Origin: Escherichia coli
GTDB taxonomy: Bacteria > Pseudomonadota > Gammaproteobacteria > Enterobacterales > Enterobacteriaceae
Assembly (NCBI RefSeq): GCF_024502345.1
Contig: NZ_JALDNN010000001.1
Reading direction: 5' to 3' (one strand)
Length of the DNA: 64,000 bases
In this document: one piece after another, positions 24,361 through 52,186 of the stretch
Layout: each line of letters starts with the position of its first letter
Position numbering within the stretch: position 1 is the first letter of the stretch
Notes under the pieces: generated by a model
Seen by the model: only the letters and a program-made list of their open reading frames with translations
Told to the model about the DNA's origin: nothing
Database searches by the model: none
Program-made: the position numbers and the translations under genes

Positions 24361-24607
24361 AATCTCGCGCTAACAACCTGGAATCGAGCCGTCATACTAC
24401 GGCGCAACGCCCTATAAAGTAAACGATGACCCTTCGGGAACTTCAGGGTAAAATGACTATCAAAATGTGAATTGTAGCTGACCTGGGACTTGTACCCGGG
24501 TCGGTATTTTTTTGCTTCTGGTCCCGGTGAGGAGTTATGCCGGGCAGGCCGAACAGCCGGGGTGGGTGAAGACTTGCCCCATCAGGAATATTCAAGAGGT
24601 ATAACAA

Positions 24608-31164: not shown

Positions 31165-31251
31165 GCCGAGGTGGTGGAATTGGTAGACACGCTACCTTGA
31201 GGTGGTAGTGCCCAATAGGGCTTACGGGTTCAAGTCCCGTCCTCGGTACCA
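31165..31251 (+). tRNA. leuU: tRNA-Leu (anticodon GAG)
   Basis: 87 nt; acceptor stem GCCGAGG/CCTCGGT, anticodon loop CTTGAGG, long variable arm, 3' CCA encoded. Confidence 0.9.
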
Positions 31252-34153: not shown

Positions 34154-34230
<77 letters not shown>

Positions 34231-34351
34231 CTTTCCCTTAGAGTCCTTTTTCAAATATACTGTGAAGACTTCGGCCTTCGTAGTGGGATTTGAAAAAATC
34301 CTTCTGGAAAGTGCTCCAGACCGCAGTTGCGGTTATAGGGTTCAGTTATAT

Positions 34352-34378
34352 AAAGCCCCGATTTATCGGGGTTTTTTG
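34352..34378 (+). terminator. terminator/attenuator-like hairpin between metY and rimP
   Basis: AAAGCCCCGATTTATCGGGGTTTTTTG; a second weaker hairpin plus T7 run follows at about 34398-34420. Confidence 0.5.
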
Positions 34379-34436
34379 TTATCTGACTACAGAATAACTG
34401 GGCTTTAGGCCCTTTTTTTATGTCTTGGGGGTGGGC

Positions 34437-39114: not shown

Positions 39115-39188
39115 GTAGGCCGGATAAGGCTTTTACGCCGCATCCGGCAGCCGTTGCCTGATGTGACGCTGGCGCGTCTTATCAGGCC
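39115..39188. repeat. REP (repetitive extragenic palindrome) pair
   Basis: GTAGGCCGGATAAGGC...ACGCCGCATCCGGCA and GCCTGATGTGACGCTGGCGCGTCTTATCAGGCC. Confidence 0.7.
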
Positions 39189-40662: not shown

Positions 40663-41137
<475 letters not shown>

Positions 41138-41274
41138 AGGTTCGCGCGGCTAATGAGAGGCTTTACCCACATTGGGCTGGGTTAGGGTTGTCATTAGTCG
41201 CGAGGATGCGCAGAAGATCGGGTATTAACACCAGTGCCGTAAGGTACTGTCTAAGAAAGAGAAAGGATATTACA

Positions 41275-47985: not shown

Positions 47986-48993
47986 CTATCCCAACAACTC
48001 TTCCTTAACATCCATCGCCAGCTCAAACGAATGCAGGCGCGCCTGGTGGTCGAAAATCTGCCCGTTAACCATAATCTCATCGGCGTCGGTTTCGCGCAGG
48101 ATCGACTGCAAGCCATGACGCACTTTCGCTTTATCGCCCACCAGCGACATACTCAGCGCCTGTTGCACGCCATACTGCTCAGACGGTGACCAGAACTGAT
48201 CCATATTTTGAATCGGCGGCGGCAGTTGCCCGGTTTCGCCACGGCGCAGCTTCACAAAGGCTTGCTGCATTGAGGTAAACAGAAATTCAGCGTCGCGGTT
48301 GCTGTCGGCAGCGATAATATTGATGCACACCATCGCGTATGGTTTTTCCAGTCGTGCCGACGGTTTGAAGTTGCTGCGATAAAGATGCAGCGCCTGGAAC
48401 AACATATCCGGCGCGAAGTGTGAGGCAAACGCAAACGGCAGACCAAGCTGCGCCGCCAGTTGCGCGCTGTAAAGGCTGGAGCCTAACAACCACACGGGGA
48501 TTTTCTCGCCATAGCCTGGTACCGGGCGCACATGCGGATTGGGATCGCGGGCGTCAAACCAGTCCACCAGCTCCGCCACATCGCGGGGGAAATTATCAAT
48601 ATCGCCGCTCATATGACGACGTAGCGCCATCATTGTCCGTTGGTCACTACCCGGAGCACGACCCAGCCCCAAATCGATTCGCCCCGGATAGAGTGTATTA
48701 AGCGTGCCGAACTGTTCTGCAATGACCAACGGTGAGTGGTTAGGCAACATCACGCCGCCAGACCCCAGATGCAGCGTGGTGGTATTCGCCGCCAGATAGC
48801 CAATCAATACCGACGTGGCAGCACTGGCAATGCCAGTCATATTGTGGTGTTCTGCCAGCCAGTAGCGATGATAGCCGCGCTTTTCAGCCAGACGGGCGAG
48901 ATCGAGAGAGTGGGAGAATGCTTCTCGCGCTGAAGAACCTTCGGGAATGGGGGCCAGATCGAGTAGCGAAAACGCAATGGTTTTATCAGTCAT
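47986..48993 (-). CDS. yhbW: luciferase-like monooxygenase family protein YhbW
   Basis: 335 aa. Confidence 0.88.
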
Positions 48994-49073
48994 AACAGCT
49001 CACTTTGTTACCGATTAATCTTTAATACTGCATTAAAGAGTAGTTAAAGTTGTTAACAAAGTGAGCTATTTAC

Positions 49074-49952
49074 TTAGGCTTGCAGCTCCAGTCCTGCCAG
49101 CCGCCACCAGTAGCCGTTACAGTCGCTGTTCGCCGTCAACGGCAGTGGTGCAGCGCCATTTTCATTAGCGCGGAAGGCGTCGAGCATCGCGAAAGTGTCA
49201 GTACCCTGCGGTGACAGGCGGACCACATCAACCAGGCCCTGCATGGATGCCAGCTCGTTACCGAGGTTGTAAACGTAGCCGCTCATGGTCTGAATGCCAT
49301 TGAGTACAAACACTTGTTGGTTTTCCTGCGACAGCACGTTGCGCCCGTTCGGATACTTAATGCAGCAGGTTTCACACTCATCTTTCGGGCGGTCTTCCGA
49401 ACGCGCGGTAAAGCAGCGAGCGGAGTAGGCCAGCGGTAGATGACCGTAGCTCAGGACTTCCACTTCAAACTGGTTGCGAATGCCCAGCTCATCGCACTGA
49501 TTAAGCAGATTCACCAGCCAGTCGCGGGAAAGCTCCACCGGCATACACCAGCGCATCATGCCCTGTTTGAGCAATATTTTCAGCGTCACCGCGTTATAGC
49601 AGTTCAGCGCGTGTCCGGCGACGAACGGCAGTTTGCGTTCAGCGCACATATTCACCACGCCGAGATCGCTGGCTTCAATCAGAAACTCACCGTTCTCAAC
49701 ATAGCGTTTCAGTTCGCCCAGTTCAGATGATGCCTGCACCAGCGCCAGCGTGGAGAGCACTATCTGCTTACCACTTCCGGCGAGCGATTTTGCCATCTCC
49801 AGCCAGTCGCCAACTTTGGTTGCCCGGCGCTTGCTGCAAACCGCTTCGCCAAGATAAATCACGTCGGCGCTGCTGGTGGCGGCCTGCTGATAAAAATCTT
49901 CCAGCGTCTCTTTTGGCCAGTACCACAGCACTGGCCCTAAGGAATATTTCAT
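49074..49952 (-). CDS. ubiV: U32-family protein UbiV (YhbV)
   Basis: 292 aa from ATG at 49952 (MKYSLGPVLWYWPKE). Confidence 0.85.
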   Translation of the reverse strand: MKYSLGPVLWYWPKETLEDFYQQAATSSADVIYLGEAVCSKRRATKVGDWLEMAKSLAGSGKQIVLSTLALVQASSELGELKRYVENGEFLIEASDLGVVNMCAERKLPFVAGHALNCYNAVTLKILLKQGMMRWCMPVELSRDWLVNLLNQCDELGIRNQFEVEVLSYGHLPLAYSARCFTARSEDRPKDECETCCIKYPNGRNVLSQENQQVFVLNGIQTMSGYVYNLGNELASMQGLVDVVRLSPQGTDTFAMLDAFRANENGAAPLPLTANSDCNGYWWRLAGLELQA

Positions 49953-49960
49953 TGATCTTC

Positions 49961-50956
49961 TCACTGCCATTTACGGTGATACGCGCCAAGGGTGGTCTGC
50001 GTGCCTTCGGACATCGACCCGAGCGTCTCCATCCACGCGCTTTGCGGTACGAAGTTTTGCGGATCGGCCTTACAACGGTCGATAGCCTGACGCCAGACTT
50101 TCGCCACTTGGCTGACATACGCCGGGCTACGCTGGCGGCCTTCAATTTTCACCGAAGCGATATTCGACGCCATTAACTCCGGCAGCAGTTCCAGGGTATT
50201 GAGACTGGTTGGTTCTTCCAGCGCGTGATAGCGCTCGCCGTCCACCAGATAACGCCCTTTACACAACGTCGGATAACCTGCGTTTTCGCCGTCCTGATAA
50301 CGGTCGATCAGCACTTCGTTCAGGCGGGATTCCAGCCCCTGCGGCGTTTGCTGCCAGCGCACGAAACGGGCCGGAGAACACGCACCTACAGTGTTGGGCG
50401 ACTCACCCGTCAGATACGACGACAGATAGCAACGGCCTTCCGACATAATGCACAGGCTGCCAAAAGCAAAGACTTCCAGCGGGACAGGTGTGACCCGTGC
50501 CAGCTGTTTCACCTGATGAATCGACAACACGCGCGGCAGCACCACGCGGGCAACGTCAAAATGGCGATGATAAAAGTTAATCGCCTCTTCATTGGTCGCC
50601 GAAGCCTGCACTGACACATGACGCTCAATATGCGGGTAACGCTCGGCGGCGTACTCCAGCATGGCGAGGTCGGCGAGGATCAGCGCGTCGGCACCCAGCT
50701 GCGCCGCCATATCCACGGCGCGCTGCCAACGCGCGTAACCGTCCGGATGCGCAAAAGTGTTAATCGCGATGTGAAGTTTGCGGCGATGTTGATGGACAAA
50801 ACTCACCGCTTCCTGCAATTTTTTCTCGGTAAAGTTAAGGCCGGCGAAGTGACGGGCATTGGTATCATCTTTTAGCCCGATATAAACAGCATCTGCGCCG
50901 TTTTCGATGGCCGCCTTAAGCGCCGGGAGATTTCCGGCAGGGCAGAGCAGCTCCAT
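49961..50956 (-). CDS. ubiU: U32-family protein UbiU (YhbU)
   Basis: 331 aa from ATG at 50956 (MELLCPAGNLPALK). Confidence 0.85.
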   Translation of the reverse strand: MELLCPAGNLPALKAAIENGADAVYIGLKDDTNARHFAGLNFTEKKLQEAVSFVHQHRRKLHIAINTFAHPDGYARWQRAVDMAAQLGADALILADLAMLEYAAERYPHIERHVSVQASATNEEAINFYHRHFDVARVVLPRVLSIHQVKQLARVTPVPLEVFAFGSLCIMSEGRCYLSSYLTGESPNTVGACSPARFVRWQQTPQGLESRLNEVLIDRYQDGENAGYPTLCKGRYLVDGERYHALEEPTSLNTLELLPELMASNIASVKIEGRQRSPAYVSQVAKVWRQAIDRCKADPQNFVPQSAWMETLGSMSEGTQTTLGAYHRKWQ

Positions 50957-51164
50957 AATTTTTCCTGAAGGTTGCGCTATCAAAACGCAAAAATGTTAAC
51001 GAACTGGGATTTTAGTTAACCTTGCTGCGACAATTTTTGATTTAAGGCAGTTAAAGTTGTATTGGTGGTAGCAGCAATTTCATATGGAATTGTTGATTTA
51101 TACCGCTATGTTATTTTTCTGATATGGCAAAATAGGATGATTGTTGAAACAGGGAGTAAAACTC

Positions 51165-51689
51165 GTGTTGGATAAACTGCGTTCCCGCATTGTGCATTTG
51201 GGACCATCTCTGTTGAGTGTACCGGTAAAACTGACGCCATTTGCGCTAAAACGCCAGGTTCTTGAGCAGGTCTTAAGCTGGCAATTCCGCCAGGCGCTGG
51301 ATGATGGTGAGCTGGAGTTCCTTGAAGGCCGCTGGTTAAGTATTCATGTGCGTGATATTGACCTGCAATGGTTTACCTCGGTGGTGAATGGCAAACTGGT
51401 GGTCAGCCAGAACGCGCAAGCTGATGTGAGTTTTAGTGCCGACGCCAGCGATCTGCTGATGATTGCGGCGCGTAAACAAGATCCGGATACGCTCTTCTTC
51501 CAGCGTCGGCTGGTGATTGAAGGCGATACGGAACTGGGGCTGTATGTGAAAAACCTGATGGACGCCATTGAACTGGAGCAAATGCCGAAAGCCTTACGCA
51601 TGATGCTGCTGCAACTGGCGGATTTTGTTGAGGCGGGAATGAAAACCGCGCCTGAAACCAAACAGACATCGGTAGGTGAACCATGCTAA
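51165..51689 (+). CDS. ubiT: SCP2-domain protein UbiT (YhbT)
   Basis: 174 aa if initiated at GTG 51165, with AGGGAG 8 nt upstream; divergent from ubiU. Confidence 0.8.
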   Translation: MLDKLRSRIVHLGPSLLSVPVKLTPFALKRQVLEQVLSWQFRQALDDGELEFLEGRWLSIHVRDIDLQWFTSVVNGKLVVSQNAQADVSFSADASDLLMIAARKQDPDTLFFQRRLVIEGDTELGLYVKNLMDAIELEQMPKALRMMLLQLADFVEAGMKTAPETKQTSVGEPC

Positions 51690-52186
51690 TTCGAGTAGAA
51701 ATTCCCATTGATGCGCCGGGTATTGATGCCCTGCTGCGTCGTTCATTCGAAAGTGATGCGGAAGCGAAGCTGGTTCACGATCTGCGTGAAGATGGCTTTC
51801 TGACGCTGGGGCTGGTGGCGACAGATGACGAAGGTCAGGTCATTGGCTATGTGGCATTTAGTCCGGTTGATGTGCAGGGCGAAGACCTGCAATGGGTCGG
51901 CATGGCACCGTTGGCGGTTGATGAAAAATACCGTGGACAGGGGCTGGCACGCCAACTGGTCTATGAAGGACTCGATTCGCTTAATGAGTTCGGCTATGCC
52001 GCAGTGGTGACGCTGGGCGATCCGGCGCTGTACAGCCGTTTTGGCTTTGAACTGGCGGCACATCACGATCTGCGTTGCCGCTGGCCGGGCACTGAAAGCG
52101 CCTTCCAGGTACATCGTTTAGCGGATGACGCGTTGAATGGCGTAACTGGTCTGGTTGAGTATCACGAGCATTTCAATCGCTTTTAA
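51683..52186 (+). CDS. yhbS: GNAT family N-acetyltransferase YhbS
   Basis: 167 aa. Confidence 0.85.

Follow-up and report, generated by a model that had tools for sequence, protein, structure and literature searches.

The closest described counterpart of the locus analysed here is ubiT-ubiU-ubiV of Escherichia coli K-12 MG1655 (yhbT-yhbU-yhbV; Pelosi 2019, PMC6747719; Arias-Cartin 2023, PMC10470549), whose genes, biochemistry and control by FNR are already known. According to this literature UbiU and UbiV form a heterodimer with one 4Fe-4S cluster per subunit that hydroxylates the ring during ubiquinone biosynthesis independently of O2, prephenate being the reported oxygen donor, and UbiT is a lipid-binding accessory factor of the SCP2 type. 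The cluster ligands follow the motif CX6CX16CX38C in UbiU and CXnCX12CX3C in UbiV (PMC6747719). Two FNR sites, F1 (TTGATTTAAGGCAG) and F2 (TTGATTTATACCGC), have been placed relative to three transcription start sites (TSSs), with F1 36 nt upstream of the ubiUV TSS, F2 33 nt upstream of the ubiTp2 TSS and the ubiTp1 TSS 19 nt upstream of F2 (Arias-Cartin 2023, PMC10470549). In K-12, mutation of F1 abolishes the production of UbiV, and mutation of F2 abolishes the anaerobic induction of UbiT and leaves its basal expression (PMC10470549). FNR ChIP-chip recovered exactly the F1 motif at yhbT/yhbU (Grainger 2007, PMC1802558), and ChIP-seq placed yhbUV among the directly FNR-activated genes, in a study where 19/23 activated promoters have an FNR site within -41.5 +/- 4 (Myers 2013, PMC3688515).

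We compared with this system a locus in a 64-kb stretch of E. coli DNA, hereafter the window, and put at about 95% the probability that it is the standard E. coli ubiT/ubiU-ubiV locus (K-12 b3157-b3159), working as described for K-12. Order, orientation, gene lengths, the 8-nt gap between ubiU and ubiV and the 208-bp region between the divergent genes are all as in K-12. On the minus strand lie ubiV (49074-49952; 292 aa) and ubiU (49961-50956; 331 aa), both found in the open reading frame list and both coding for U32-family 4Fe-4S subunits of the O2-independent hydroxylase. The spacer between them (49953-49960) reads GAAGATCA in gene orientation and offers a weak ribosome-binding region for ubiV. 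The accessory factor UbiT (174 aa, GTG start) is encoded on the plus strand at 51165-51689, which leaves 208 bp (50957-51164) between the start codons of ubiU and ubiT. The initial annotation had described three full-length genes with an 8-nt gap and about 200 bp between the divergent starts, and this description holds in every part.

The identity of the three genes, which had been made dependent on hits to U32 and SCP2 domains, is likewise borne out. UbiU and UbiV match Pfam PF01136 (Peptidase_U32) with E-values of 2e-67 and 1e-9, and UbiT matches PF02036 (SCP2) with 8e-20. All three also pass the cut-offs of their NCBIfam equivalog models: UbiU scores 559.3 bits against NF047963 (cut-off 440; residues 1-331 on profile positions 1-331), UbiV 362.5 bits against NF047965 over its full length (cut-off 275) and 440.5 bits against NF011991 (cut-off 283), and UbiT 153.6 bits against NF047962 (cut-off 46.9). 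The Fe-S ligands C169, C176, C193 and C232 of UbiU are all there, among cysteines at 5, 169, 176, 193, 232 and 295, as are C39, C180, C193 and C197 of UbiV, which are invariant in 73/73 orthologs. The role assigned to the genes in the initial annotation, anaerobically induced and O2-independent ubiquinone synthesis, agrees with the published work (PMC6747719, PMC10470549).

The locus belongs to the core genome, being present in 5,424/5,426 complete E. coli genomes, and a ubiU-ubiV distance below 500 bp has been found in 99.6% of genomes (PMC11707229). The GTG start of ubiT and its GGGAG ribosome-binding site are kept across genera. Alternative starts at TTG 50983 for ubiU and TTG 51141 for ubiT were dropped in view of the K-12 annotation and the cross-genus conservation of the annotated start codons and ribosome-binding sites, and for ubiV the annotated start was preferred to ATG 49970 because K-12 is annotated in the same way and no ribosome-binding site precedes that ATG. 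The sole small open reading frame of the intergenic region, a 37-aa frame with a TTG start (51062-51175), begins upstream of the ubiTp1 TSS and is unsupported. A scan of the whole window against Rfam gave no RNA family match at the locus.

Over the 2,616 bp of the ubiV-ubiU-ubiT segment the strain is colinear with K-12, with 48 substitutions (1.8%) and no indels. Between 50940 and 51180, a stretch that takes in the whole intergenic region, identity to K-12 is 100%, and this settles the comparison of intergenic regions that the initial annotation had proposed; F1, F2 and all promoter elements are thus those of K-12. The UbiT protein is also identical. UbiU differs from its K-12 counterpart by I190V and A264S, UbiV differs by E19D and R283W, and the 8-nt spacer differs at two positions, one of which (49955) is a variant private to the strain; the segment 49920-49995 has no exact match among the 5,426 complete E. 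coli genomes. UbiU occurs in exactly this form on at least 1000 public contigs.

The strain also carries a rare allele of ubiV, R283W, caused by a change at 49106, which qualifies the word "intact". Could the cluster be in frame and yet functionally impaired, with R283W damaging the hydroxylase? The substitution was not found in any of the 5,426 complete E. coli genomes, where the best match to 49074-49145 has one mismatch, and it comes directly after an NGYW motif kept unchanged in 73/73 orthologs. Residue 283 itself is limited to H, R, K or Q in these 73 orthologs, so that the change to tryptophan is non-conservative. The position does vary among basic and polar residues, however, the Fe-S ligands of both subunits are all intact, and change in the remainder of the locus is mostly synonymous. 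Furthermore, the exact 292-aa UbiV protein is found on 44 public E. coli contigs, indicating that R283W circulates as an allele and is neither a sequencing error nor a dead end. We therefore consider an impaired hydroxylase quite improbable, although full function of the cluster is an assumption because of the non-conservative change at this H/R/K/Q position. We infer that the strain behaves like K-12.

In the shared intergenic region the initial annotation had found no convincing FNR palindrome by eye, and in the literal sense this is right, since no 14-mer of 50957-51164 has fewer than three mismatches to TTGAT-N4-ATCAA. The closest 14-mers, each with 3/10 mismatches, are F1 (51037-51050, plus strand; CTGCCTTAAATCAA in ubiU orientation) and F2 (51093-51106, plus strand), and each of them combines one perfect TTGAT half with one degenerate half. 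Counting mismatches has no discriminating power here, as the window holds 297 sites with up to three mismatches where about 241 are expected by chance, so we turned from the consensus search, which is too unspecific, to a weight matrix derived from 30 published ChIP-chip motifs, the yhbT/yhbU motif being excluded. The matrix scan that had been suggested for this region gave a divided result. F1 stands out clearly, with 12.3 bits and rank 5 of 63,987 window positions, a level reached by 44/3000 shuffles of the intergenic region; F2 is weak, with 4.2 bits and rank 367 of 63,987. The weak score, together with how common three-mismatch matches are by chance, means that F2 is not established from the sequence alone, and its status rests on the published mutagenesis in K-12.

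Could the locus then be without functional FNR sites, its anaerobic induction being indirect or due to another regulator? The distance of every intergenic 14-mer from the consensus, the near-chance frequency of such matches and the low score of F2 would fit this reading, but it is already refuted for K-12, where mutations of F1 and F2 in an identical sequence abolish FNR-dependent expression and where ChIP-chip and ChIP-seq both place an FNR peak at the locus. The rank of F1 and the conservation of both sites in sequence and position across orders speak against it as well. Given the identity of the intergenic sequence to K-12 and the validation of F1 and F2 by mutagenesis there, a call of "no FNR site" would be wrong, and we regard a locus free of functional FNR sites as extremely improbable.

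With both sites taken as FNR sites, their spacing was compared with that expected of class II activator sites, near -41.5. The published edge-to-TSS distances of 36 and 33 nt put the centre of F1 at about -41.5 to -43.5 from the ubiUVp TSS and that of F2 at about -40.5 (40-41 bp upstream) from the ubiTp2 TSS, and the expected spacing is thus seen at both sites, with TSS positions that derive from the literature and with conserved -10 elements where they would be expected. The TSS coordinates given here were back-calculated from the distances quoted in the published text, and their exact values are approximate accordingly. The ubiUVp core promoter (51000-51014, minus strand) has the -10 element TAAAAT (51014 to 51009) and a probable TSS at about 51000-51002, in a block conserved in 16 Enterobacteriaceae genera. 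On the plus strand, the proximal ubiTp2 core promoter (51125-51140) has the extended -10 element TGGCAAAAT (51125-51133), in which (A/G)TGGCA(A/G)AAT is conserved across genera, and a probable TSS at about 51140. The distal, FNR-independent promoter ubiTp1 (51058-51074, plus strand; TSS at about 51073-51074) has TGTATTGG as a candidate TGn-extended -10 element, and we assign this hexamer tentatively. A scan of 48900-51800 for sigma-70 consensus promoters and terminators gave nothing above shuffle expectation and missed all three real promoters.

The way in which the locus would work, with FNR dependence and start sites taken from the literature, is as follows. At low oxygen, [4Fe-4S]-FNR would bind the degenerate F1 and F2 sites, leading to class II activation of ubiUVp from F1 and to activation of the proximal ubiTp2 from F2. 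The constitutive ubiTp1 (TSS at about 51073) would provide a basal level of UbiT under aerobic conditions independently of FNR.

A second regulator might act on the same DNA, and the initial annotation had proposed that ArcA sites be sought there along with those of FNR. The ubiTp2 spacer is overlapped by phased TGTTA-like repeats (51098, 51109 and 51120), through which, for instance, phosphorylated ArcA could directly regulate the region. What we take to be the ArcA consensus sequences were applied to the intergenic region, and TGTTATTTTTCTGATA (51109-51124) has one mismatch to TGTTA-N6-TGTTA, with a third repeat, TTATA, 11 bp upstream; the window as a whole has only seven sites this good, counting its two strands. 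At least two direct repeats with 11-bp spacing are the architecture reported for ArcA. However, when this AT-rich region is shuffled with its composition kept, 5.2% of the shuffles contain an equal site, the repeat is not conserved beyond Escherichia in the cross-genus alignment, and the 15-bp ArcA box is matched in the region with five mismatches at best. In addition, the supplementary tables, possibly incomplete, of an ArcA ChIP-seq and expression study (PMC3798270) contain none of yhbT, yhbU and yhbV; the neighbouring gene yhbW is listed there among the ArcA-affected operons. The evidence for ArcA is weak, and direct control by it seems very improbable. FNR acting at F1 and F2 is the reading that we retain.

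Conservation of the control region was assessed in a gammaproteobacterial comparison set of 81 loci, those of 120 fetched in which ubiT is divergent from ubiU and lies no more than 600 bp away. F1 scores at least 8 bits in 79/81 of them; the TTGAT half of F2 is present in 54/81, and in 47/81 the centre of the site lies 64-67 nt away from the start of ubiT. In a phylogenetic footprint over 16 Enterobacteriaceae genera the conserved blocks are F1 and F2, the two -10 elements and the two ribosome-binding sites. The conservation of F1 and F2 across loci is already published.

Three further observations concern this region. First, the ubiU-ubiT intergenic region is nearly invariant species-wide: its 208 bp have at least 99% identity in all 5,424 E. 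coli genomes, whereas two regions taken as controls reach this level in just 746 and 11 genomes and variation in the coding and intergenic DNA nearby amounts to 1-5%. Second, F1 keeps the sequence CTGCC as its non-consensus half across gammaproteobacterial orders (63/81 loci), which suggests that this half may tune the affinity for FNR or may be read by a second factor. Third, the ubiUV 5'UTR contains a stem-loop predicted by folding (50972-50990, minus strand; UUGCGUU-UUGAU-AGCGCAA, mRNA positions of about +13 to +31) with a minimum free energy of -7.3 kcal/mol and z = -3.4. Other genera have a hairpin of different sequence at the same place (z < -1.5 in 12/15, mean z -2.4), and it is possibly a 5' stabiliser. 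This local hairpin alone stands out within the ubiU 5'UTR, as folding gave no significant global structure for the whole ubiU 5'UTR (z = +0.34) or for the long ubiTp1 5'UTR (z = -1.35). RNAalifold returned no pairs from the MAFFT-aligned hairpins because stem and loop lengths vary between genera, and per-sequence z-scores were used instead. The invariance in 5,424 genomes, the conserved CTGCC and the structure-conserved hairpin are the grounds for suspecting that the control region may encode more regulatory information than two FNR sites and the three known promoters, a suggestion that we hold to be rather unlikely but not negligible.

Between F1 and F2, Citrobacter, Enterobacter and Kluyvera have an intact 17-bp palindrome (TATTGRTNNNRYCAATA), which in Escherichia carries a 3-bp insertion. 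This may mark how the constitutive ubiTp1 promoter arose. The Citrobacter palindrome resembles a PdhR box; a PdhR reading of the Escherichia palindrome was rejected, since its spacing is disrupted and the PdhR targets found by gSELEX in K-12 do not include yhbT/yhbU. A sigma-54 reading of GGCAG...TTGTA beside F1 was also rejected by eye, because its spacing misses by one and it has no GC dinucleotide.

For the annotation of the genome the locus matters little, being part of the core genome and fully published. It does hold a lesson of method: FNR sites with only half of the consensus escape a palindrome search, whether by eye or by mismatch count, and such a search would miss functional sites like F1 and F2 because they are of this kind. 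Here they were recognised because the sequence equals the one mutagenised in K-12 and because of the cross-genus footprint. The invariance of the region, the CTGCC half, the hairpin and R283W could be cheap leads on oxygen-tuned ubiquinone synthesis in E. coli and leave the verdict unchanged.

Beyond K-12, the nearest relatives are the divergent loci found elsewhere in the Gammaproteobacteria ("architecture 3"; Kazemzadeh et al., ISME J 2024, PMC11707229), which share the F1-type site (79/81) and an F2-type half-site at a fixed distance from ubiT, but differ in intergenic length (153 to 490 bp) and in the longer or double hairpins of their ubiUV 5'UTR. Several Enterobacteriaceae genera differ from Escherichia in that their palindrome between F1 and F2 is undisrupted. 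In Pseudomonas aeruginosa, ubiU, ubiV and ubiT form a one-strand operon with the sRNA SicX upstream. The same three proteins are induced there by the FNR homologue Anr, with the same oxygen-sensor logic. Apart from E. coli, P. aeruginosa is the one species for which an experimental demonstration is cited (PMC11707229). More distant are the prephenate-dependent RNA hydroxylases TrhP (YegQ) and RlhA (YdcP), which share the Peptidase_U32 fold family and the four-cysteine Fe-S motif with UbiU and UbiV. Against the TrhP model UbiU scores a sub-threshold 164.9 bits, and both UbiU and UbiV lie far below its cut-off of 534 bits while exceeding their own equivalog cut-offs. The two groups also differ in substrate, which is RNA for TrhP and RlhA and a quinone precursor for UbiU and UbiV.

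The three genes are full length and divergently arranged. On the minus strand, ubiU (49961-50956, 331 aa) and ubiV (49074-49952, 292 aa) are separated by 8 nt between the ubiU stop codon (TGA) and the ubiV ATG, while on the plus strand ubiT (51165-51689, 174 aa) begins with a GTG that lies 208 bp from the ubiU start codon; all three were assigned from the ORF list and the annotation of the K-12 locus. Pfam finds Peptidase_U32 in UbiU (2e-67) and UbiV (1e-9) and SCP2 in UbiT (8e-20), the two domains on which gene identity had been said to depend, and each protein passes its NCBIfam equivalog cut-off (559 bits against 440 for UbiU, 362 against 275 for UbiV and 154 against 47 for UbiT). The eight cysteines that ligate the 4Fe-4S clusters, C169, C176, C193 and C232 of UbiU and C39, C180, C193 and C197 of UbiV (PMC6747719), are all found in the window proteins, and all but two of the 5,426 complete E. 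coli genomes (5,424) carry the locus. The ORFs, K-12 comparison, domain and equivalog matches, cysteines and genome occurrence together confirm in full the intact divergent cluster of the initial annotation, which is borne out in every particular, including the 8-nt gap. Among the complete genome matches, one additional copy of the locus was seen on a plasmid record.

Compared base by base with K-12 over 2,616 bp, the window carries 48 substitutions and no indels. UbiT is identical to its K-12 counterpart, UbiU differs by I190V and A264S, and UbiV differs by E19D and R283W. The intergenic comparison proposed initially gave 100% identity over 50940-51180, within a run without substitutions of 455 bp (50733 to 51187) that reaches into the 5' end of ubiU. 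Neither R283W (49106, codon 283) nor the variant base 49955 in the ubiU-ubiV spacer is present in any of the 5,426 complete E. coli genomes; despite this, the exact window UbiV protein is found on 44 public E. coli contigs. Residue 283 directly follows an invariant NGYW motif; 73 orthologs have H, R, K or Q there.

The initial annotation had seen no clean FNR palindrome between ubiU and ubiT, and indeed TTGAT-N4-ATCAA is not found in 50957-51164, where the best 14-mers have three mismatches. The consensus at three mismatches is almost uninformative, since it matches 297 times in the window, where chance would give about 241. Judged by K-12-identical sequence, however, two of these matches are the published functional FNR sites of K-12, F1 (51037-51050) and F2 (51093-51106). 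In K-12, 36 nt separate F1 (TTGATTTAAGGCAG) from the ubiUV start site downstream of it, and F2 (TTGATTTATACCGC) lies 33 nt upstream of the proximal ubiT promoter, ubiTp2, and 19 nt downstream of the distal one, ubiTp1; FNR activates the ubiUV promoter (ubiUVp) and ubiTp2 but not ubiTp1, a chromosomal F1 mutation abolishes UbiV, and an F2 mutation removes the anaerobic induction of UbiT while its basal aerobic level is kept (Arias-Cartin et al. 2023, PMC10470549). Before that work, FNR ChIP-chip had reported a motif at yhbT/yhbU (ubiT/ubiU) that is exactly F1 (PMC1802558), and ChIP-seq places yhbUV among the operons under direct FNR activation (PMC3688515).

From the published distances, transcription would start at about 51000-51002 for ubiUV (-10 TAAAAT at 51014 to 51009), at about 51140 for ubiTp2 (extended -10 TGGCAAAAT at 51125-51133) and at about 51073-51074 for ubiTp1, so that the centres of F1 and F2 would sit approximately 40-43 bp upstream of the start sites, in a class II position. 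The weight-matrix scan suggested at the outset was run with a symmetric matrix built from the 30 other motifs of Grainger Table 2, leaving out the yhbT/yhbU entry. F1 is strong (12.3 bits, rank 5 among 63,987 window positions, a score that the shuffled intergenic region reached in 44 of 3000 trials) and F2 is weak (4.2 bits, rank 367), indicating that F1 is supported by sequence alone and F2 is not. Two GTTAAC hexamers 20 bp apart (50995-51000 and 51015-51020) lie on either side of the ubiUVp -10 and transcription start; most of 16 aligned Enterobacteriaceae genera keep both, with two copies in 19/81 divergent loci, which may simply be core-promoter conservation.

Footprinting used one genome per species and a DNA-pattern scan anchored on the UbiU N-terminus, yielding 120 loci, 81 of which have a divergent ubiT at most 600 bp away and were used for site counts. 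In the 16-genus Enterobacteriaceae alignment the conserved blocks are both ribosome-binding sites and start codons, including the ubiT GTG, the ubiUVp -10 and start region, the ubiTp2 extended -10, and F1 and F2, each with flanks. With a cut-off of 8 bits, 79/81 loci have an F1-type site. The ATCAA half of F2 occurs in 54/81, and in 47/81 its centre is 64-67 nt away from the ubiT start; such FNR-site conservation has already been published (Kazemzadeh et al., PMC11707229). The consensus half of F1, ATCAA, is found in 71/81 loci, little more often than its non-consensus half CTGCC (63/81; ubiU orientation, GGCAG at 51046-51050), in loci that span Enterobacterales, Vibrionales, Aeromonas and Moritella and are not phylogenetically independent. 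Conservation of these particular bases would not follow from a need for low affinity alone.

Within E. coli, the 208 bp of 50957-51164 show 99% identity or more in every one of the 5,424 carrier genomes, and 100% in most matches sampled, compared with 746 genomes for a 208-bp control centred in the deaD-mtr intergenic region and 11 for a ubiU-internal piece at the same threshold. Only 1/208 positions differs in a divergent E. coli (approximately 6% coding divergence) and 4/208 in E. albertii. That so invariant a region holds extra regulatory content is a doubtful reading. In a few genomes, e.g. NZ_CM130020.1 and NZ_CP043486.1, the match falls into two parts, suggesting that insertions occasionally occur within the control region or close to it.

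A stem-loop at 50972-50990 (minus strand), in the ubiUV 5'UTR close to the start of the transcript, has z = -3.4, and the Rfam scan returned no family for it. A hairpin of different sequence occupies the same position in other Enterobacteriaceae genera (12/15 with z < -1.5, mean -2.4), and E. albertii differs here at two positions, one in the loop and one that changes a G-U pair to G-C. Between F1 and F2 (window 51060-51079) lies the counterpart of a 17-bp palindrome, TATTGRTNNNRYCAATA, that 14 related loci (L119, L056, L016, L097, L045, L049, L033, L061 and others of the footprinting set) have in perfect form; Citrobacter, Enterobacter, Kluyvera, Pluralibacter and Pseudocitrobacter are among the genera represented. 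In Citrobacter it is similar to the PdhR box AATTGGTnnnACCAATT; yhbT/yhbU are not among the K-12 PdhR targets (PMC7660256). In E. coli and E. albertii the palindrome centre is 3 nt longer and the CG upstream of it is now TG, a possible extended -10 for ubiTp1.

Direct control of the ubiT/ubiUV region by ArcA, for which a scan had also been proposed, is unlikely. The scan did find a site with one mismatch to a pair of TGTTA repeats spaced 11 bp apart (TGTTATTTTTCTGATA, 51109-51124), and a third repeat, TTATA, 11 bp upstream gives three phased repeats (TTATA, TGTTA, TGATA) over 51098-51124, between F2 and the ubiTp2 -10. Only seven sites this good exist in the window, yet 5.2% of AT-rich-region shuffles equal it, leaving the signal marginal, and the repeat is specific to Escherichia, with no conservation of TGTTA elsewhere in the 16-genus alignment. 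Furthermore, the available part of the ArcA ChIP-seq supplementary tables does not list yhbT, yhbU or yhbV, but does place the neighbour yhbW (47986-48993) in the ArcA-affected operons with a value of 5.7 (Park et al. 2013, PMC3798270).

The genes flanking the locus match the K-12 arrangement. Just downstream of ubiV is yhbW, a luciferase-like monooxygenase gene, and on the other side yhbS starts at 51683, 7 nt before the end of the ubiT stop (51683-51689), an overlap from which ubiT and yhbS are probably co-transcribed and translationally coupled. The yhbS product is a GNAT-family protein, which may be HqbA, described as a regulator of Hfq (PMC10710024). Rfam matches across the window are ArcZ, the greA leader, two tRNAs, the rimP leader, naRNA4, the S15 leader and SraG (intervals 2784-2891, 24391-24512, 31165-31248, 34154-34419, 39118-39188, 40701-40815 and 41045-41216), as expected for the K-12 arcB-to-yhbO region. 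We regard the side observations as modest leads rather than findings.

By every feature testable in its sequence, the locus belongs to the K-12 ubiTUV system. Enzyme activity and in vivo FNR dependence have been established in K-12, whose control region has the same sequence and whose proteins differ by 0-2 residues, and would carry over by analogy; the cluster and its control are already known from K-12, and what is seen here is nothing new in kind.
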